Positions 1 through 8,024 are shown, numbered from the stretch's first letter. The stretch is DNA of 25,101 nt from Actinomyces viscosus (GCA_943326975.2 CALPVI020000001.1:1-25101); one strand, 5' to 3'. Made by a program: numbers and translations. The notes: a model not told the origin generated them from the sequence alone.

Positions 1-1
1 G

Positions 2-73
2 GGTATTGCAAAATTTAGGATTTTAATCAAAAAATGGGCGTTTCAACTTTTCGGATATTATCTTGATGAATAA
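2..73 (+). CDS. Possible 3' end of a gene entering from the left edge (GIAKFRILIKKWAFQLFGYYLDE*)
   Basis: Frame 2 is open from the window edge to TAA at 71-73, and the sequence turns into very AT-rich intergenic DNA right after. Too short to identify. Confidence 0.3.
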   Translation, partial: GIAKFRILIKKWAFQLFGYYLDE

Positions 74-183
74 GTTATAATGGAAACTTATAATTTATTT
101 TCAATTATGCCAATCACTTTAATTTATAAATTAAATACTTAATTAAAAATAATAAAGTTTAATGTATAAATGAAATTTATAAT

Positions 184-191
184 TAATTTTG
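184..191 (+). promoter_or_regulatory. Bacteroidota housekeeping-sigma -7 element (TAATTTTG) upstream of the ATPase
   Basis: Exact TAnnTTTG match ending 23 nt before ATG 215. No clear -33 TTTG, and the AT-rich context raises the chance-match rate. Confidence 0.45.
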
Positions 192-214
192 TTAAAGTTT
201 AATCTATATAAAGA

Positions 215-1420
215 ATGACAACATATATTCCTAGAAACGAATACATAAAGAGAATATTACCATTTATAGGTAAGAACATCATCAAAGTATTAGTCGGACA
301 AAGAAGAGTTGGTAAAAGTTACCTTTTACTACAACTAATGGATGAAGTGAAAAAAATAAATTCTGATGTTCATTGTATATTCATTAATAAAGAATCCTTA
401 GAATTCGATTCAATAAAAGACTACAATGACGTATTAGATTACGTCAATCAACATACACTACTAAACAAAAAAAACGCATTATTTATAGATGAAATACAAG
501 ATATTAAAGAGTTTGAAAAGGCATTAAGGCATTTTGGATTAAATGAAAATTTTGATATTTATTGTACTGGAAGTAATGCAAATTTACTTTCGGGTGAATT
601 AGCAACCTTTTTAAGTGGAAGATATATCGAATTCAATGTATATAGTCTTTCCTATTTAGAATTTTTACAATTTCATGAATTAGAAAATACAAATACTTCT
701 TTAAAATCCTTTTTAACTTATGGAGGTTTACCCTTTTTAAAAAACTTAGTAAAAGATGATGAAGTCTACATGGAATATTTAAAGAACATTTATTCTACTA
801 TCTTATATAAAGACATCATCTCACGATTTCAGATCAGAAATACTCAATTTTTAGAAAATTTAGTCCAATTTCTTTCAAACAATATTGGAAACGTGATTTC
901 TGCTAATAAAATAAGTGATTATTTGAAATCTCAAAAATTAAAAATATCACCTCAGTTAGTGATTAATTATTTAAACTACCTCTCACAAGCATTTTTGATT
1001 TTTCAAGTTAAACGCAATGACATCATTGGAAAAAAAGTATTTGAAATCCATGAGAAATACTATTTTGAAGATTGGGGTATTGTAAATGCAATGATAGGAT
1101 TTCAAAATATGGATATTGGAAAAATAATAGAAAACGCTGTTTACATTCACCTTAAATGTCATGGATATAAAGTGAATGTAGGTGTACTTGGAGATAAAGA
1201 AATTGATTTCATTGCAGAAAAAAACGGCGAAAAAATATACCTGCAAGTTTGTTATTTGCTACCCGATGAAAAAGTGAAACAAAGAGAATATGGAAACTTA
1301 CAACTAATTAATGACAATTATCCAAAATATGTTATTTCTCTCGATGAATTTGCTCCTTCCGATTGGAATGGAATTAAACATATCCAACTAAAAGATTTTC
1401 TAAGTGGAAGTTGGGTTTGA
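215..1420 (+). CDS. ATP-binding protein, AAA_14 + DUF4143 (COG1373-type AAA+ ATPase)
   Basis: Walker A GQRRVGKS, Walker B LFIDEIQ, TGSNA and LSGRY motifs, and C-terminal KKYYFED..ENAVY..EIDF..LQVC typical of DUF4143. The 401 aa length is typical. Confidence 0.9.
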   Translation: MTTYIPRNEYIKRILPFIGKNIIKVLVGQRRVGKSYLLLQLMDEVKKINSDVHCIFINKESLEFDSIKDYNDVLDYVNQHTLLNKKNALFIDEIQDIKEFEKALRHFGLNENFDIYCTGSNANLLSGELATFLSGRYIEFNVYSLSYLEFLQFHELENTNTSLKSFLTYGGLPFLKNLVKDDEVYMEYLKNIYSTILYKDIISRFQIRNTQFLENLVQFLSNNIGNVISANKISDYLKSQKLKISPQLVINYLNYLSQAFLIFQVKRNDIIGKKVFEIHEKYYFEDWGIVNAMIGFQNMDIGKIIENAVYIHLKCHGYKVNVGVLGDKEIDFIAEKNGEKIYLQVCYLLPDEKVKQREYGNLQLINDNYPKYVISLDEFAPSDWNGIKHIQLKDFLSGSWV

Positions 1421-1464
1421 AATAATTTTGAATGTATTTCATCACTAGACAGGATAAAGGAAAC

Positions 1465-1493
1465 AAAAAAAGCCTTACATTTCTGCAAGGCTT
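1465..1493 (-). terminator. Intrinsic terminator on the minus strand
   Basis: Minus strand reads AAGCCTTGCA-GAAA-TGTAAGGCTT-TTTTT: a 10-bp stem with one G.U pair, a GNRA loop and a U tract. On the plus strand the G.U becomes an A.C mismatch and no U tract follows. Confidence 0.8.
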
Positions 1494-1554
1494 AGATTCC
1501 ATCAATAAACATTTGATGGTCATCCGCAATGAATAATTTGATTTTTTTTGACAT
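1492..1554 (-). pseudogene. 20-codon stub of a NarL/FixJ-type response regulator (MSKKIKLFIADDHQMFIDGI*)
   Basis: Hand translation of 1554 to 1492. IKLFIADDHQMFIDGI matches the receiver-domain beta1 / acidic DD / helix 1 start of NarL-family regulators. The stop overlaps the terminator stem. Below the ORF-track size cutoff. Confidence 0.75.
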
Positions 1555-1569
1555 GAATAAAATATGTAC

Positions 1570-1577
1570 TAAAGATA
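1570..1577 (-). promoter_or_regulatory. Putative -7 promoter element (TATCTTTA) upstream of the regulator stub
   Basis: One mismatch to TAnnTTTG, 15 nt upstream of ATG 1554, with an AT-rich leader. Confidence 0.45.
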
Positions 1578-1631
1578 GTTTTAGCTAACCTTAGAAATAA
1601 TTTCATTTTAAAGATTTTTTTTGAAAATAGT

Positions 1632-1853
1632 TTATTTCTGCCAAGTCAAATCCAATCTTCCTTTTTCAGTAAAGTAATACGATTTTCTTTTGCGGCAATA
1701 TTTTATAGGTGCTTGAAAATCAGTTTTTAATACTGATATGTATTTATACACCATTCGTTCAGATATATTTAGTTGAATTGCAAACTCAGCAGGTGAATTT
1801 GTTTTTTCTTCATTGATAACATTAATGATTTTTTGTAGTAATTCAATGTTCAT
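1632..1853 (-). CDS. Stand-alone winged HTH protein (HTH_11-like), paralogue 2
   Basis: TNSPAEFAIQLNISERMVYKYISVLK..APIKYCRKRKSYYF resembles Bacteroidota HTH proteins and the N-terminal wHTH of YafY/WYL regulators. 29/73 ungapped identity with 1892..2119 by manual count. Confidence 0.85.
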   Translation of the reverse strand: MNIELLQKIINVINEEKTNSPAEFAIQLNISERMVYKYISVLKTDFQAPIKYCRKRKSYYFTEKGRLDLTWQK

Positions 1854-1891
1854 GTTTAGATTGCGATGTTGACTAATTTAAATTGAGTAAA

Positions 1892-2119
1892 TTATATTTC
1901 TTTGATCCATGTCCATATTAGTTTACCTTCTTCATAAAAGACAAATGTTTGTTTCTCACGATTGTAATTAATAGGTGCATTTAATTGTGTTTTTAAAAGT
2001 TTTACATAATGAAAAATCATTCTTTCTGACACGCCCACTTTTTCAGCTGCTGCTTTTGCGCTACCTGTTCTTTCTTTTTCAACTAAATGAATAAAATATT
2101 TTATTTTTTCAATGTTCAT
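1892..2119 (-). CDS. Stand-alone winged HTH protein (HTH_11-like), paralogue 1
   Basis: RTGSAKAAAEKVGVSERMIFHYVKLLK..APINYNR; tandem paralogue of 1632..1853. Confidence 0.85.
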   Translation of the reverse strand: MNIEKIKYFIHLVEKERTGSAKAAAEKVGVSERMIFHYVKLLKTQLNAPINYNREKQTFVFYEEGKLIWTWIKEI

Positions 2120-2323
2120 AAAAAGCTTTTACAAAATAGTCGTTTTAAAGTCTAATTTGTCCCTAAAAAAATAAATCAAACTATTTTATTAGGATTAATA
2201 AAATACTAATAGTTTGCAAATTAACGACCCCTTTATGAAATGATAGTTCAGTGAGAAATTTTTTTAATTTTTTCAAAAAACGAACTAAAAGTTAACGTTA
2301 TATAAAGTACTTTTAACATCGAA

Positions 2324-2875
2324 ATGAAAATTAATTGGGAAGAATTTTTAGAAGGGGATAATTTAGTATTAGCTAAATTATATGACGAAGTTTTTTTGTC
2401 ATTGTTATTTGTTTCCATAAGGTATACACGTGATTTTGAATTGTCGAGGGATATCATTTCAGACCTATTTTTAACTTTGATAGAAACACCAAAATCAGAT
2501 AGAATAAAAAAATGGAAAGAGGTAAGAGATATCAAATCCTTTTTAACAATATTAATTAGAAATAAATCTATCGATGCTGTCAGAACGAAGATAAATCGTC
2601 AGCAAATACGTGAAAAAATTGCATCTAAGAATACACAATATTGTGAACAAGAATATTTTCATCAAGATCATTTTGAAAAAAGCATTGCTTTATTGAATGA
2701 AAAAGAAAGAGAATTATTTTTAATGCATTTTAATGGTTTTACAAATAGTGAAATAGGAAATAAAATGTCCTATTCAGAAAAAACAGTTCGTAACAAATTG
2801 AGTTTATGCCGAAAAAAAATGATTTATTTTTGGAAAAACTTACTACTTTTAATTTTATGGAAAATTCTGAATTAA
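2324..2875 (+). CDS. ECF-type RNA polymerase sigma-70 factor
   Basis: Region 2 (RDIISDLFLTL...FLTILIRNKSIDAVR) and region 4 HTH (LLNEKERELFLMHFNGFTNSEIGNKMSYSEKTVRNKLSLCRKKM); 183 aa. Confidence 0.92.
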   Translation: MKINWEEFLEGDNLVLAKLYDEVFLSLLFVSIRYTRDFELSRDIISDLFLTLIETPKSDRIKKWKEVRDIKSFLTILIRNKSIDAVRTKINRQQIREKIASKNTQYCEQEYFHQDHFEKSIALLNEKERELFLMHFNGFTNSEIGNKMSYSEKTVRNKLSLCRKKMIYFWKNLLLLILWKILN

Positions 2876-3579
2876 ATCAATTAATTGAATTATTGGACAA
2901 TCCATCTGCATTAAAACAGAAAGTTGTTGAGCTGAAATCTACTTCAGATTTGGAAGATGAAATTATTGGATTTATTACTTTGTATGATTTATTTGAAGGA
3001 GATAGTTCTAAAATAAAAAAATACTTGGAGGAAATTAAAAAGCAGATTATTAGTCCTATCAAAATAAAATCAACTTCATTTTCTTATCTCAAATATGCCG
3101 CAATCTTTATTCTTATATTAGGTATAAGTTTGTTTTATTTTCAAAAGAAAGGAACTGCGAAATTAGCTTTGAAAAATGAATTCAATGAGCCTGGAATAGC
3201 GAATTATATGTCAACACAAACTACTTCTCTTTGGGAAGAAATAATGTATGACTACAAAATGCATAAATTCGTTTCTGCTTATACTAAAATTGAAAGAGAA
3301 TTAAAAAATTCACCTACGAATGATACATTAATTTATTTTTCTGGAATTGTAAATTACGAGTTAAAAAAAGAAAAGATTGCAACAACTAAACTAACCAAAA
3401 TTGCATTATCTAATTCAATTTTTAAGGATCGAGCTAGTTATTATTTAGGTAGAATTGCTTTTGAAAATGGTAATCGTAAACAAGCTAAGAAAATTTTTAA
3501 ATCCTTACTTAAATCAAATGATTTAGATATTAAAAATGCTTCATTTGAAAATTTAAGTGAATTAAAATCAAAAGAATAA
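2857..3579 (+). CDS. Putative anti-sigma factor: cytoplasmic N-domain, one TM helix, C-terminal TPR-like domain
   Basis: Probable start is ATG 2857 (MENSELN), overlapping the sigma stop by 19 nt; the ORF track starts at 2806. TM segment YAAIFILILGISLFYF; TPR-like helices (LIYFSGIVNYEL, ASYYLGRIAFENGNRKQAKKIF). The anti-sigma role is inferred from position and topology. Confidence 0.75.
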   Translation: MENSELNQLIELLDNPSALKQKVVELKSTSDLEDEIIGFITLYDLFEGDSSKIKKYLEEIKKQIISPIKIKSTSFSYLKYAAIFILILGISLFYFQKKGTAKLALKNEFNEPGIANYMSTQTTSLWEEIMYDYKMHKFVSAYTKIERELKNSPTNDTLIYFSGIVNYELKKEKIATTKLTKIALSNSIFKDRASYYLGRIAFENGNRKQAKKIFKSLLKSNDLDIKNASFENLSELKSKE

Positions 3580-6004
3580 AACTTAACAATACTCCAATTA
3601 GATATTTTAATTTTTGTTTATCTCCTTGATTATTTTCAAGTAAAGGGTATCGATAATTTGAAATCAAACGGTAAGGTGTCCAAAATTTAGGATGACATAA
3701 ACTACCTTTATTATTCTTTAAATATGAAAGTTGAGCATGATACAATGCGTCTTCAGTTGTTTGACCTTTTGCTATGTTATTGTAAAATGCATAAAATATT
3801 TTAGCAGAACATTCATCATCTGTTTTCAAACGGCTTACAATTATATTTTTAGCGCCTTTATTTAATAAGTATAGATACATACCACGATCAAATTCTCTAG
3901 AACTTATATTTGAATTAAATCCTGAGTAACAATTGTTTAAAACAATAAGCGAATTTTCAACTTGGTTTATATAATTAATTGAGGAAATACAGGTGTCTTT
4001 TTCTTTAATTTCGCAAGGCAATTGAAAATTGACAGAACCAAGTTCTAAATTAATTTTTAAGTCACCATGTCCGTATAAATGAAGAATTCCCTTTTTATTT
4101 AAAAACTGTGTAAGATTCCCATTGAATATTTTTGATTCACTTTTGATAGGTGTAAATTTTTCATGACTTAAATGATCCATAAATGGTAATTTACTGTAGT
4201 TCTCCGTTTTTAATTTTAAAAAGGTCAATTCATTTTTAAGTTGTTTTTTTGGTTGAATAAAAAAATCATATGGGTCATAAATTGATGTAAATTGAATTGA
4301 TTTTGCTACATAATTTAGTTTGTCATAATTAGAACCTAGTGTGTCTTTAATTAATCCATTATAATTTGTATAATCAAAGTAGAGTGTATAAATTTTATTG
4401 ATTTTTTTATTGACTTTAAGAATAGGCTCAACTTTATCTTGGTATTCTTGATATGCGTATTTTTTATACTGATGAAATGAAAGCGTATCAAAATCAATTG
4501 TATTATAATTTAAATCATTTTTACTTTTAACAATTTCAATTTTGTTAGGTTGAATAACTATTTTATAAGAATCATTCGAACTTTTTCTCGTACATGGAAC
4601 AACGATACATTCATTTGTTTTTAGTTTTTTTTGAATTAATTCAAGTTCTATTTTTGGAGCAGATTTTAAATAATAATGATTAAAATGAATTGATTTGTTA
4701 ATCAAATTTTTTAATCTTAAATCCTTTATTTTTGATAATTCAATGTTTGCATTGTTGAATCGATGATTATTTGAATAGTTTTCGTCTTTTAAATAATGAA
4801 AGTGTAAAATTTGCGTTAACAAATGTTCTGTCGCGTTTTTCAAATCTTTTTTTTGTTTCTTGACAAAAAACCGTCTTAAGTAAAGTTTAAAAAGATAGTG
4901 GTTTGGTGACGAACTATAAGTATCATAATTGTACTCTTTTGATTGAGCAAATAATGCCCACCAACTTTGGTACAATTTTTTTAAAATAGTAATGTCCTTT
5001 TGAGTTTGCTGTTCATCATAAGGTAACGTTTCTTCATTGGTCGTTTTGTAGGAATATAAAGTCATTAAAGACTTTGAGTTTGGACAATTTTCAAAATTCC
5101 CGAAAGTGGTTTGATAGTTTTTAATTGTTTTGTTAAACAGTTGTTTTGCTTTCACTTTCTCACCGATACACATGTAGTTCAGGCCTTTTAACGCCGTAGT
5201 TGAAATACGATCGTTCCAATTGTTTTTATTGATGACATTTTCCAAAGTATAATTAAAAGCGTTTAAAGCCATTTGATAGGAATACCATTGAGAAATACCC
5301 ATCTTTTTTTGTGCATCTTTGAAAACATAATTATAACCTGATACATGATCTAAATATCTTGTACCCACACCTCTATATAATAGAACTCTATCTGAACTAA
5401 ATTGAAATGGGAATTTTTTTTCATACACTTTTGCTGAGTCAAACCATTGGTTCATCACTATTCGTGCTATTGGCATTTGATGCTCTATTTTATACTTAAT
5501 AGCTGGATCTATCTTTCTATATAAAAATGTTATTGCATAAATTTGATAAACAAAAGGGACGCTTATTTTTGAATAATCTTTTCGATTTCGCTGAATGATT
5601 TCCATGGCGCGATTTGAGTAATACAATGCACTATCACCCCAAGTTAGAAAATGAAAAAAGTAAGCTTTTTCGGAAAAATACATTCCTTTATAAATTTCTC
5701 CATCTTTCTTTTTTAATTCGTAAGCTTTTCGGTTGAACTTTTCATAATTCACAATGTCATTTTCATACAAATGAATTTTAGCCAGATCTCTATAAACCCT
5801 ATATTTTGTCTCTTTTGGGATGTTTTTTGCCTTCAGGTAATCCTCCAAAAGTATGTAGGCGATATTGGTCGACCCATTTTCGATTAATTCTTCCGCCAGG
5901 ATTACTTTTTCATCTAATTTATTCGTTTTAGAATCATTCACTTGTGCGAACACATTTCCATGAAGTAAGAATAAAAAACAGATTATTTTTAAAAAGGTTT
6001 GCAA
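3530..6004 (-). CDS. CHAT-domain (caspase-like, clan CD) protease with signal peptide and C-terminal TM anchor
   Basis: TTG start. Signal peptide MQTFLKIICFLFLLHGNVFA. CHAT motifs ILHLYGHG (His646), LIVLNNCYSG (Cys692), GAKNIIVS..DD, FY, ALYHAQLSYL and HPKFWTPYRLI. C-terminal hydrophobic YLIGVLLSFILLILIHL. Confidence 0.9.
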   Translation of the reverse strand: MQTFLKIICFLFLLHGNVFAQVNDSKTNKLDEKVILAEELIENGSTNIAYILLEDYLKAKNIPKETKYRVYRDLAKIHLYENDIVNYEKFNRKAYELKKKDGEIYKGMYFSEKAYFFHFLTWGDSALYYSNRAMEIIQRNRKDYSKISVPFVYQIYAITFLYRKIDPAIKYKIEHQMPIARIVMNQWFDSAKVYEKKFPFQFSSDRVLLYRGVGTRYLDHVSGYNYVFKDAQKKMGISQWYSYQMALNAFNYTLENVINKNNWNDRISTTALKGLNYMCIGEKVKAKQLFNKTIKNYQTTFGNFENCPNSKSLMTLYSYKTTNEETLPYDEQQTQKDITILKKLYQSWWALFAQSKEYNYDTYSSSPNHYLFKLYLRRFFVKKQKKDLKNATEHLLTQILHFHYLKDENYSNNHRFNNANIELSKIKDLRLKNLINKSIHFNHYYLKSAPKIELELIQKKLKTNECIVVPCTRKSSNDSYKIVIQPNKIEIVKSKNDLNYNTIDFDTLSFHQYKKYAYQEYQDKVEPILKVNKKINKIYTLYFDYTNYNGLIKDTLGSNYDKLNYVAKSIQFTSIYDPYDFFIQPKKQLKNELTFLKLKTENYSKLPFMDHLSHEKFTPIKSESKIFNGNLTQFLNKKGILHLYGHGDLKINLELGSVNFQLPCEIKEKDTCISSINYINQVENSLIVLNNCYSGFNSNISSREFDRGMYLYLLNKGAKNIIVSRLKTDDECSAKIFYAFYNNIAKGQTTEDALYHAQLSYLKNNKGSLCHPKFWTPYRLISNYRYPLLENNQGDKQKLKYLIGVLLSFILLILIHLNFQMKHF

Positions 6005-6100
6005 TGATGTAAGTGTTGTGAAAAGTATTTAATAAAAATGCAGCTTTAAAAATAAAATTAAAAATTCTTTTTTAAATATGTCTGTATTTTCTAGTAATCT

Positions 6101-6733
6101 CTAAAAATCAATTAGAGTTGAATTGCTTATATCTACAATACCAGCGTATTCATTTTGAAAATAATCTTTGGAAATTAGTTCTAATAGTATTTCGCTTGTT
6201 TCCAAAGGACTGTTACCATTTGGATTACCCATTTCAGTGTTTAAAATACCAGGATGAATAATGTTTACCGTGAAATTTTGATTTTCTTTTCGTAAAATTT
6301 GTGCAAACATTGAAATGGAAGTTTTTGAAAGACAGTATGCATAGCCAGGTAAAGCTTCAAATTGATTTGAAGAAATGTATTTTTGAGAAGAAAATCTACT
6401 TCCTACTAATATCAATTGTTTTAAATGCTTCAATTTCTCCAATTTGAATAATTCGTGAACTAATTGAATTGGTTGTAATAAGTTGACGTGCATTACCTTT
6501 TCTAGTTCAAGTGGGTCGATTTCTTGAATATTTCCACCAGAATCTCCAATAGCGGCATTTAAAATCAATACTTCTATTGAAGGTGGAATTTCTACCAAAT
6601 TTGAATATGAAAAAATGTTCTTTGAAGGGCTATATTGACTATGAGAAATTCCAAAAACAGTAAATCTCTCATCGTCTGAATTGAGGATAGCGGCACCTAA
6701 ACCAGAAGAAATACCTGTAACAGCTATTTTCAT
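6101..6733 (-). CDS. Short-chain dehydrogenase/reductase (SDR family)
   Basis: TGISSGLG nucleotide-binding motif, NAAIG, catalytic YCLSK (YxxxK) and HPGILNTEMG. Confidence 0.9.
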   Translation of the reverse strand: MKIAVTGISSGLGAAILNSDDERFTVFGISHSQYSPSKNIFSYSNLVEIPPSIEVLILNAAIGDSGGNIQEIDPLELEKVMHVNLLQPIQLVHELFKLEKLKHLKQLILVGSRFSSQKYISSNQFEALPGYAYCLSKTSISMFAQILRKENQNFTVNIIHPGILNTEMGNPNGNSPLETSEILLELISKDYFQNEYAGIVDISNSTLIDF

Positions 6734-6735
6734 GC

Positions 6736-7986
6736 TTAATTATTTTTATTTGAATCAAGTATAGTTAATAAATTCTCTACACTCTCAAGACTTCCTTCTA
6801 TCCAATTCGGATTTGAAGAAAAATGTTCTCCGATTGCATAGAAATGTTCCCCAAGTTGCACGGTTTTTTTAAGCTCATAAATTTTATGAAAAAAACCTTT
6901 ATTATAGACCCAATAACAGCCGTTAAATCTTGCATCATTATAATCTTGAATGTAAATCTCTTGTATGTCTTTTTGTCCAAAATAGGAATTCAGACGATCA
7001 CAAATCTCTGAGTGTCCCCATTCCTTTTTCAATGAAAGTAAATACCATTCAAATACATTCGCACTGTGCTTGATGATTCTAAATGGCTCATCTGTAAGAA
7101 TATAATCTTTAAATTTATTCGACAAATCACCTTCTTTTAAAGTGAAATAACCTTTTATACATTTTCCATAACCCCCAAAAGTCAAATATCTTTTAAGTTC
7201 ACTTTGAATTTCATCGGGTAGCATTACTTTTTCTAAGCTTGATAAACTGCTTGTAACCACAATATTTTTAGCTGTATATAATTCAGTACTAGTATGTACT
7301 TTAAAACCTAAATCACAATTCTCAATTTTTAAAACTTTCTGATTAAAAAGAATTTCTAATTGATTTTTTTCAACTAGCCCATTTACAATTCCAATCATTC
7401 CATTTTTTAAACGATAAACTTTATCTTCAGTATCAGTCATATTCGACAAATAACAAAAAGCTGCTTCGTACAAGGTAGTTTGTTCTAACATTAAATCAAT
7501 GTCACCTAAAAAATATAATTTCGTTGGTTCAAAAGCTATTCCTTTATCAGCTAACCAATTTTTGAATAAAATAGCATCCCATTCTGCTGGTTGTAAACGT
7601 TCAAAATCAGCCAAATTTAGAACTCCTTCTTTAATTAAGAACTTACTTAACTCTTCTAAAGGGTCAACTTCTTCCAATTGTTTAACTAAGTCATCTATAT
7701 CCGAATAAAAAGTATCATTCCAAAAAATAGAAGCTGAATCGTTTATATGTTCAGTTAGTTCTAAATTCAATGTTTTAACTAATCCTAAAGTACGTTTGTG
7801 TGCACTCAATAACCTAGCAGCACCTAATTCAATAGGAAACGATGAAATTTGTTTGGTCTGAATTCTTCCTCCAGGGTTTTCGTCACTTTCCAAAAGTATA
7901 AATGATATATTTCTTTTTTTAAGCTCCGCCGCCAAAGTAATTCCACTTATACCTGCTCCTATTATTAAAAAAGTTGTTGTTTTCAA
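6736..7986 (-). CDS. FAD-dependent amine / L-amino-acid oxidase family protein
   Basis: TTG start. IIGAGISG dinucleotide-binding motif, E...GGRIQT, IELGAAR and C-terminal GEH...WIEGSLES. 2-nt gap to the SDR suggests an operon. Confidence 0.85.
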   Translation of the reverse strand: MKTTTFLIIGAGISGITLAAELKKRNISFILLESDENPGGRIQTKQISSFPIELGAARLLSAHKRTLGLVKTLNLELTEHINDSASIFWNDTFYSDIDDLVKQLEEVDPLEELSKFLIKEGVLNLADFERLQPAEWDAILFKNWLADKGIAFEPTKLYFLGDIDLMLEQTTLYEAAFCYLSNMTDTEDKVYRLKNGMIGIVNGLVEKNQLEILFNQKVLKIENCDLGFKVHTSTELYTAKNIVVTSSLSSLEKVMLPDEIQSELKRYLTFGGYGKCIKGYFTLKEGDLSNKFKDYILTDEPFRIIKHSANVFEWYLLSLKKEWGHSEICDRLNSYFGQKDIQEIYIQDYNDARFNGCYWVYNKGFFHKIYELKKTVQLGEHFYAIGEHFSSNPNWIEGSLESVENLLTILDSNKNN

Positions 7987-7992
7987 ATCCCA

Positions 7993-8024
7993 CTTGATTA
8001 TTAAACTTTAAAAGTATAAGTTTG
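7993..8024 (+). promoter_or_regulatory. Bacteroidota promoter for the GH99-like / PhyH pair
   Basis: TAAGTTTG at 8017-8024 (exact -7) and CTTG at 7993-7996 (3/4 match to the -33 element), 20-nt spacer. Confidence 0.6.

Follow-up and report, generated by a model that had tools for sequence, protein, structure and literature searches.

Positions 2,324 to 6,004 of a 25,101-nucleotide stretch of DNA recorded under Actinomyces viscosus (GCA_943326975.2, CALPVI020000001.1:1-25101; the whole stretch is referred to here as the window) encode a sigma factor of the extracytoplasmic function (ECF) type, a single-pass transmembrane (TM) protein with tetratricopeptide repeats (TPRs), called here the TM/TPR protein, and an exported TPR-CHAT protease transcribed convergently with them. 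The CHAT protein is predicted to bind the TM/TPR protein directly, and in the predicted complex an invariant motif beside the membrane helix lies in the catalytic cleft of the protease. The model points to a protease that probably controls release of the sigma factor. We put at about an even chance the specific reading that the locus encodes a split, two-protein version of the TPR-CHAT-gated ECF sigma switch of DdvA from Myxococcus xanthus, with the CHAT protein as the site-1 protease or the gatekeeper of an anti-sigma factor. New in this analysis are the invariant linker motif, its predicted docking at the active site scored against controls, the co-variation of motif and pocket, and a rare derived class of the system with a new amino-terminal domain and two winged helix-turn-helix (wHTH) genes.

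The CHAT protease and its predicted membrane partner

The protease gene (3530-6004, minus strand, TTG start) encodes a protein of 824 amino acids. Its match to PF12770 (E 8e-14; 52.2 bits against a gathering cut-off of 24) covers profile positions 134-287 only, the C-terminal half of the profile. The protein begins with a signal-peptide-like segment (residues 1-21) and ends in a hydrophobic helix (residues 794-823) followed by a short basic tail. The AlphaFold2 (AF2) model (pLDDT 87.4, pTM 0.84) contains an N-terminal helix (2-22), an alpha-solenoid (32-438), the CHAT domain (460-782) and the TM helix (794-823). The catalytic dyad region (3929-4069, minus strand; codons checked) extends from His646 (4067-4069), in a GHG context, to Cys692 (3929-3931), in an NNCYS context. 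Both residues are invariant in two sets of relatives, of 13 and of 30 members, the larger set sharing 25-62% identity with the window protein.

The closest match to the fold is Csx29 (8eey_B), with a Foldseek E of 3e-11 and a VIA-align Z of 22.3 over residues 96-785. The model also superposes on the separase protease domain (5fby; Z 19.9, root mean square deviation 3.8 Å over 287 residues) and matches DdvA (Foldseek E 3e-8 and 4e-7). Searching the PDB sequences with the CHAT profile returned a single weak match (8tl0, E 0.27), so kinship to Csx29, DdvA and separase is detectable by fold only. Taken together, the conservation of the dyad and the fold match support a catalytically competent enzyme. 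PADLOC gave no defence-family match for either the TM/TPR protein or the CHAT protein.

The TM/TPR protein, a putative anti-sigma factor and the predicted partner of the protease, has 240 amino acids (2857-3579, plus strand). Its longest open reading frame (ORF) begins at 2806, and the start kept in relatives is the ATG at 2857 (MENSELNQLI). The protein has one hydrophobic helix (residues 75-97) and three TPRs (residues 130-228), the alignment profile of which matches TPR proteins in the PDB, both designed and natural (E 1e-9). Modelled alone by AF2 (pLDDT 83.5), it comprises a four-helix N-domain (residues 4-65, pLDDT about 90), the TM helix (75-97), a disordered linker (98-123) and the TPRs (124-238). 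Across 21 orthologues the net charge flanking the helix is +3.6 on the N-terminal side and about zero on the C-terminal side. These charges obey the positive-inside rule and hence place the N-terminus inside and the TPRs outside. Partner proteins of this kind at present carry no annotation beyond 'tetratricopeptide repeat protein'.

The linker carries a juxtamembrane motif, EPGIANYMS (residues 111-119; 3187-3213, plus strand), which is a candidate cleavage or docking site. Neither G113 nor M118 varies in the 21-orthologue alignment, and P112 is nearly invariant. In the AF2 model of the protein by itself, the motif is of low confidence and lacks regular structure. In these respects the locus agrees with a preliminary description made from the sequence alone, which had proposed an envelope sensor with the CHAT protein as site-1 protease. 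All three genes are present where it placed them, the start it assumed for the TM/TPR gene is the conserved one, and the dyad it named is intact. The signal peptide, the C-terminal helix with its basic tail and the N-in orientation of the TM/TPR protein also place the TPR domain and the protease together in one extracytoplasmic compartment, as it had predicted.

We modelled residues 22-790 of the CHAT protein with residues 98-240 of its partner, using unpaired alignments of our own. The median ipSAE of three runs was 0.64, and the best of three controls reached 0.01. For orientation, the mark of 0.64 is reached by 58 of the 80 solved complexes and, among 110 mismatched pairs, by 2; this calibration is rough here because the alignments were our own. 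Confidently predicted interface residues are 644-648 (GHG), 690-693 (NNCY), 602-609, 724-733 and 767-769 of the CHAT protein, and 112, 115-124, 127-134 and 223-227 of the partner. Since partner residues 112 and 115-124 contact CHAT residues 644-648 and 690-693, the model places EPGIANYMS in the His646/Cys692 cleft. This prediction, which the preliminary description had suggested as a check on its proposal, supports direct binding between the two proteins. On the partner side the predicted contact singles out P112, G113 and M118, and on the protease side H646, C692 and Y693.

A conserved unit of five genes

The sigma gene (2324-2875, plus strand) encodes 183 amino acids and matches TIGR02937 (53.0 bits, cut-off 42.9) and, in Pfam, Sigma70_ECF, Sigma70_r4_2 (34.6, cut-off 25.7) and, weakly, Sigma70_r2 (17.4 against 24). 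The protein is an ECF (group IV) sigma factor with sigma2 and sigma4 regions only; at 183 amino acids it has no space for regions 1 and 3. It matches the type III-E sigma model weakly, at 19 bits against a cut-off of 100. The sigma and TM/TPR genes overlap by 19 nucleotides, and the membrane protein, with a predicted small helical bundle on the cytoplasmic side, is encoded directly after the sigma factor. Residues 167-183 of the sigma factor (IYFWKNLLLLILWKILN; 2824-2872) form a hydrophobic C-terminal tail, which is unusual among ECF sigma factors, and the region encoding it overlaps the start of the TM/TPR gene. The hydrophobic character of this tail is kept in 20 of 20 orthologues (FKSLLIFFA, for example).

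The TM/TPR and CHAT genes converge with a 50-nucleotide overlap (3530-3579), and in the class A (window-type) and class B (more distant, see below) loci inspected these 3' ends overlap by 9-86 nucleotides. The overlap leaves no space for terminators and implies overlapping antisense transcripts.

Searching 201 Crocinitomicaceae genomes with the TM/TPR profile gave 24 full-length copies. A sigma gene lies directly 5' of the TM/TPR gene, and overlaps it, in all 24 loci. The CHAT gene adjoins the TM/TPR gene in 22 of the 23 loci that could be assessed; one locus has no CHAT gene within 1.5 kb, and one more lies at a contig edge. In a second set of 21 loci, from public species-representative genomes labelled mostly as Crocinitomicaceae or Fluviicola metagenome-assembled genomes (MAGs), several of them under plainly mistaken species names, the full triad is present in 18. 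Two others are cut by a contig end (L037, L049), and in L052 the contig begins just upstream of the CHAT gene, with 8 kb of downstream sequence that contains no sigma or anti-sigma gene. Because the genomes compared are related, these counts are not independent, and the home-made profile used for sigma detection may miss divergent sigma factors. CHAT identity across the class A loci falls to 25-30% with the linkage still kept. The linkage also survives rearrangement, the CHAT gene being co-directional in L009/L102 and on the other side of the sigma gene in L053. This conservation of linkage excludes a chance neighbourhood.

Some class A loci contain further genes. L046 (10333-11292), L048 and L050 have a Fic/DOC-domain gene between the CHAT and anti-sigma genes, and L053 has an unassigned gene for 323 amino acids in its place. 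In one genome (G195 contig C14; L038, L101) there are two complete class A modules, separated by about 11 kb, and the CHAT gene of one of them is much more divergent.

Divergent from the sigma gene is a tandem pair of small winged-helix genes. The first, hthB (1892-2119, minus strand), encodes 75 amino acids with weak Pfam matches to HTH_1 and HTH_11; the second, its paralogue hthA (1632-1853, minus strand), encodes 73 amino acids and matches HTH_11 (E 3e-6) and HTH_45 (2e-4). Orthologues of hthA adjoin the sigma gene in class A loci, and the two genes are conserved together and accompany the triad in nearly all of them. By this gene-order conservation both wHTH genes belong to the conserved unit, which makes it a module of five genes. 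In L046, L048 and L050 they are fused into a single protein of 160 amino acids, which suggests that the two proteins act as a pair. They are probably part of the output of the switch in the lineage of the window. PADLOC returned only weak matches for the sigma and wHTH proteins, over the HTH region, to CARF and WYL models.

Upstream of hthB, direct reading of the sequence identified a bipartite promoter-like motif, ACTGAAC-N21-TTAATTTG (2217-2252, minus strand), both halves of which are conserved in relatives of the same genus. The motif may be either the promoter of the sigma factor or an operator for the wHTH pair. In eight loci from other genera (L040-L045, L047, L051) the ACTGAAC half recurs 42-61 nucleotides (mostly 56-61) 5' of the CHAT start, with TTnnTTTG about 21 nucleotides later. 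In L046, L048, L050 and L052 the upstream half resembles an inverted repeat, ACTGcAA-N6-TTtCAGT. The pattern ACTGAA[CT]-N20-22-TTnnTTTG has three sites in the genome of the window, against 0-5 in five shuffles, and only the site at 2217-2252 has a downstream gene, the two outside the module having none. A regulon cannot therefore be named. Taken by itself, the 7-mer ACTGAAC shows no enrichment in the window, where it has 4 sites and 2.4 would be expected.

A small GG-leader peptide ORF beside the module was looked for in window positions 1-8000 and was not found. An ATPase gene with AAA_14 and DUF4143 domains (215-1420, plus strand) matches the PADLOC candidate defence family PDC-S01 (E 6e-146). 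Genes of this type adjoin the module in seven class A loci, in varying positions and orientations. The genome itself (2.1 Mb) has only four copies, and three other MAG records contain copies with 86-95% identity to this one. A 20-codon ORF (1492-1554, minus strand; MSKKIKLFIADDHQMFIDGI) resembles the N-terminus of a response-regulator receiver domain cut by a stop, and is probably a gene remnant.

Related triads across Bacteroidota

Other genera of the family hold class B loci, in which distantly related CHAT and TM/TPR genes are again convergent neighbours. Here the CHAT protein matches the full profile, and the periplasmic half of the TM/TPR protein is homologous to that of the window protein. 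The pair is preceded by a divergent sigma-like gene of 186-190 amino acids; in L094 the Pfam ECF sigma matches of this gene are weak and below the gathering scores.

Across the phylum, PF12770 is present in 176 of 301 sampled Bacteroidota genomes. We examined 70 loci, comprising 40 CHAT loci from 40 genomes (3-4 kb flanks) and the 30 top-scoring loci (1.5 kb flanks). In 11 of the 40 a sigma gene and, after it, a gene for a single-pass anti-sigma-like protein converge on the 3' end of the CHAT gene, and a twelfth has two inserted genes. These 11-12 loci, about a quarter of the CHAT genes sampled, span nine Bacteroidota families. The same layout occurs in 4 of the 30 top-scoring loci. A Bacteroidetes genome has about 22 ECF sigma factors (PMC7826278), and the chance of finding a sigma gene in exactly this place and orientation is on that basis well under 1%. 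One candidate, L107, was dropped, the gene between its CHAT gene and sigma-like ORF being an MnmA-like enzyme.

Two types of anti-sigma-like protein recur. In the TPR type the linker motif is ..PYxN....VRG.., and the paired CHAT proteins bear a C-terminal helix. The second type has a zinc finger (HxxxCxxC) and a linker motif ..LE......RS.., and is paired with CHAT proteins ending in WxGFVLIG; its periplasmic beta-rich domain ends in GLYYWKL...VGKFFV. Triads of this zinc-finger type were seen in other Bacteroidota families at L120, L129, L130, L133, L134, L140, L152 and L165-L167. The second CHAT gene in the genome of the window (G000 contig C256:395-3942) encodes an exported TPR-CHAT protein ending in WAGFVLVR. 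Its frame is broken by a stop between 1099 and 1103, and the next gene encodes an exported protein of 269 amino acids; no sigma or anti-sigma gene is present on this contig, which is only 3.9 kb long.

The preliminary description had pointed to similar triads in other Bacteroidota and had taken the system to be a CRISPR-independent unit, to be checked by a neighbourhood census. The census bears this out, both in the recurrence of the layout in nine families and in the co-occurrence of the genes through rearrangements. The count of three genes was too low for the lineage of the window, where the triad stands and the two wHTH genes are added to it.

Aligning the CHAT domains across classes at the interface positions revealed that the residue after the catalytic Cys varies with the linker motif of the partner. 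It is E in zinc-finger triads, in which the linker has RS (Arg before a small residue), and N or E in the VRG triads, which likewise have Arg before a small residue. In a class B variant with K-M-S (L093, L094) it is N, and in the class of the window, where Y-M-S puts Met in the place of Arg, it is Y or F. The context of the catalytic His is G-H-G in the class of the window and in the K-M-S variant, and S/T/M-H-S/A/G in the VRG and RS classes. The pattern is suggestive only. It fits an enzyme and a motif that have co-evolved, and would account for the atypical surroundings of the active site in the class of the window.

It is possible, and we offer this tentatively, that exported TPR-CHAT proteases are dedicated site-1 proteases or gatekeepers for a large share of the ECF anti-sigma factors of Bacteroidota. 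Specificity would then follow a code of motif and pocket, ..VRG.. (TPR type) and ..RS.. (ZAS/beta-domain type) matching E or N after the Cys and ..YMS.. (window) matching Y or F. The lineage of the window would be a derived branch with a new sigma-binding domain, a hydrophobic-tailed sigma factor and, for its output, a wHTH heterodimer that may be connected with the adjacent PDC-S01 ATPase. Bacteroidota carry the largest numbers of ECF sigma factors, most of them with unknown triggers. If the proposal were true, a general caspase-like trigger for these sigma factors would fill a gap in how Bacteroidota sense their envelope and surroundings.

A possible mechanism and its alternatives

In the switch that we favour, the resting sigma factor would be co-produced with the membrane protein and held by its cytoplasmic four-helix N-domain. 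The periplasmic part of the membrane protein consists of the disordered linker with EPGIANYMS, then the three TPRs. The TPR-CHAT protease from the convergent gene, exported and tethered to the inner membrane by its C-terminal helix, is predicted to bind this periplasmic part so that the His646/Cys692 cleft holds the linker motif. The dyad would be activated by a signal that either the alpha-solenoid of the protease or the TPRs perceive. The linker would then be cut (site 1), an RseP-type protease would cut the helix (site 2) and the sigma factor would be freed. The genome does encode a site-2 candidate, G000:C38:1852-3120, which matches PF02163 (Peptidase_M50; E 3e-50). In this lineage the output probably includes both divergent wHTH genes.

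Several observations weigh against this switch. The complex is a model built from unpaired alignments of our own, with binding predicted and cleavage and sigma release inferred. The predicted interface is large (72-79 contacts), and its size would suit a standing complex or a securin-like pseudosubstrate equally well as a substrate. In DdvA, self-cleavage was not observed and mutating the dyad gave no phenotype (PMC11506125). In the Bacteroidota sample, about 70% of CHAT genes lack a sigma gene beside them. Finally, residues 1-70 of the TM/TPR protein contain no HxxxCxxC zinc motif and no other Cys or His motif, and hhalign detected no similarity between the N-domains of the window (A4) and of class B (A5), the probability being 7%, so that homology between them cannot be claimed. 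As the N-domain lacks detectable similarity to anti-sigma domains, the proposed anti-sigma role rests on gene position, on the joint switching of N-domain and sigma types, on the predicted four-helix fold and on the N-in topology.

The main alternative, which we consider rather unlikely, is that the two proteins form a standing complex and the anti-sigma factor is not cut. The motif would then be a securin-like pseudosubstrate that keeps the CHAT protein inactive, or the CHAT protein would be a co-receptor; a different site-1 protease or a change of conformation would release the sigma factor, and the freed CHAT protein would cut other envelope proteins or peptides. The alternative stays alive because of the size of the predicted interface, which extends to TPR residues 127-134 and 223-227, and because the DdvA dyad, seen in the resting state, can be mutated with a wild-type result (PMC11506125). 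Against it, a conserved Arg (or Met) before a small residue in a disordered linker near the membrane is site-1-like, the residue after the catalytic Cys co-varies with the motif, and the unit has no second conserved protease. The nearness of the fold to separase, which securin inhibits as a pseudosubstrate, is in keeping with a standing complex, as is the likeness of the alpha-solenoid to the TPRs with which Rap and NprR bind peptides (Z 18-19.6).

That the TM/TPR protein is not an anti-sigma factor at all is a good deal less probable. It would in that case be a membrane adaptor or a substrate-presenting partner of the protease, and the sigma factor would only control expression of the operon and the wHTH genes. 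Sigma and TM/TPR genes overlap in every locus, which speaks for a closer relation, and the class B and type I homologues hold a ZAS-related domain in the position of the N-domain. The class B N-domain (A5) aligns with the ZAS alignment (A6) at an hhalign probability of 91%, the TPR-type N-domain is likewise related to this zinc-finger profile, and in the PDB the profile finds RsiW, ChrR, RsrA and DdvA-Nt. N-domain and sigma types also switch together while the periplasmic part remains homologous throughout. An adaptor would nevertheless account for an N-domain unlike anti-sigma domains, for the conserved hydrophobic tail of the sigma factor itself, and for a very small family, the class A N-domain having 46 matches among 1.84 billion cluster representatives, nearly all of them proteins of about 240 amino acids with the same architecture.

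Lastly, the CHAT gene could be a mere neighbour or regulon member of an ordinary sigma/anti-sigma pair with no physical link to it, as the promoter-like motif shared 5' of CHAT in eight loci (a fit to simple co-regulation) and the many CHAT genes lacking a sigma neighbour might suggest, but this is very improbable given a linkage that survives rearrangements and recurs in several paralogous classes, a complex prediction that passed against controls with the active site inside the interface, and the overlapping 3' ends of class A and class B loci.

Comparison with known systems

The two-protein switch that we favour shares features with several characterised systems. In the type III-E Craspase (Cas7-11/Csx29/Csx30/CASP-sigma) a TPR-CHAT protease cuts a sigma-binding protein and so frees an ECF-like sigma factor. 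Cleavage there follows Met or Leu, as reported in PMC11506125 with reference to the Craspase papers, and is comparable to the Y-M-S of the window. Craspase is cytoplasmic and is activated by the RNA-guided Cas7-11, whereas the protease of the window has a signal peptide and is predicted to be exported. No cas gene was found among the nine genes scanned between 215 and 10133 with Pfam, NCBIfam or PADLOC, no search for CRISPR arrays or repeats being made, and the window has no ORF longer than 824 amino acids that might correspond to Cas7-11.

Classical regulated intramembrane proteolysis (RseA/DegS/RseP; RsiW/PrsW/RasP) similarly combines a membrane anti-sigma factor that has an extracytoplasmic domain, a site-1 protease in the same compartment and a Peptidase_M50 site-2 protease. 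The site-1 candidate in the window differs in being a caspase-like cysteine protease of clan CD, with a sensor solenoid of 400 residues, rather than a serine or PrsW-type metalloprotease, and in being encoded beside its candidate substrate. With separase and securin the system shares a protease domain that superposes and a disordered partner segment in the active-site cleft, which is predicted for the window. Separase, however, is a eukaryotic cytoplasmic or nuclear enzyme, and securin is an inhibitor, not a signalling substrate.

Among ECF groups, ECF54 has been associated bioinformatically with CHAT-domain proteins, and proteolytic control has been proposed (PMC8999054). That group is described without an anti-sigma factor and with carboxypeptidase and subtilase neighbours, neither of which holds here: an anti-sigma-like gene is present, and the neighbours in the window are, by Pfam, an SDR protein, an amine oxidase and the AAA_14 ATPase. 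The main text of the ECF re-classification paper does not mention CHAT (PMC7826278).

The closest system is DdvA/DdvS of M. xanthus, in which the solved transmembrane anti-sigma factor is fused to a periplasmic TPR-CHAT module (PMC11506125; PDB 8rot, 8rw5, 8rlz). Each CHAT active site faces the linker between TM helix and TPR-CHAT of the opposite protomer; removal of TPR-CHAT permits cleavage by RseP, and the CHAT domain was proposed to be the site-1 protease (PMC11506125). DdvA-like fusions were found by the authors only in Myxococcota and one Comamonas species (PMC11506125). The preliminary description had known of no experimental account of such a system. DdvA/DdvS is a published one for the fused form, and for the two-protein arrangement of an exported CHAT protein and an anti-sigma factor in Bacteroidota we likewise found nothing in the literature.

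Both systems have an ECF sigma gene adjacent to that of a single-pass anti-sigma or anti-sigma-like protein, a periplasmic TPR-CHAT with an intact His-Cys dyad, and an active site that faces the linker beside the membrane helix, as predicted for the window. They differ in that the protease of the window is a protein in its own right, which carries a signal peptide and a C-terminal anchor and is encoded by one of two convergent genes rather than as part of one polypeptide, and in that the anti-sigma-like protein keeps three TPRs only and has no CHCC zinc domain. The nine window genes scanned also include no CBASS or CRISPR gene. In DdvA the site-1 role could not be demonstrated, since a single chain is both enzyme and substrate and its trigger is unknown. 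In the window the enzyme and its candidate substrate are separate proteins with a predicted contact, so the proposal made for DdvA gains a substrate on which the idea is directly testable in vitro.

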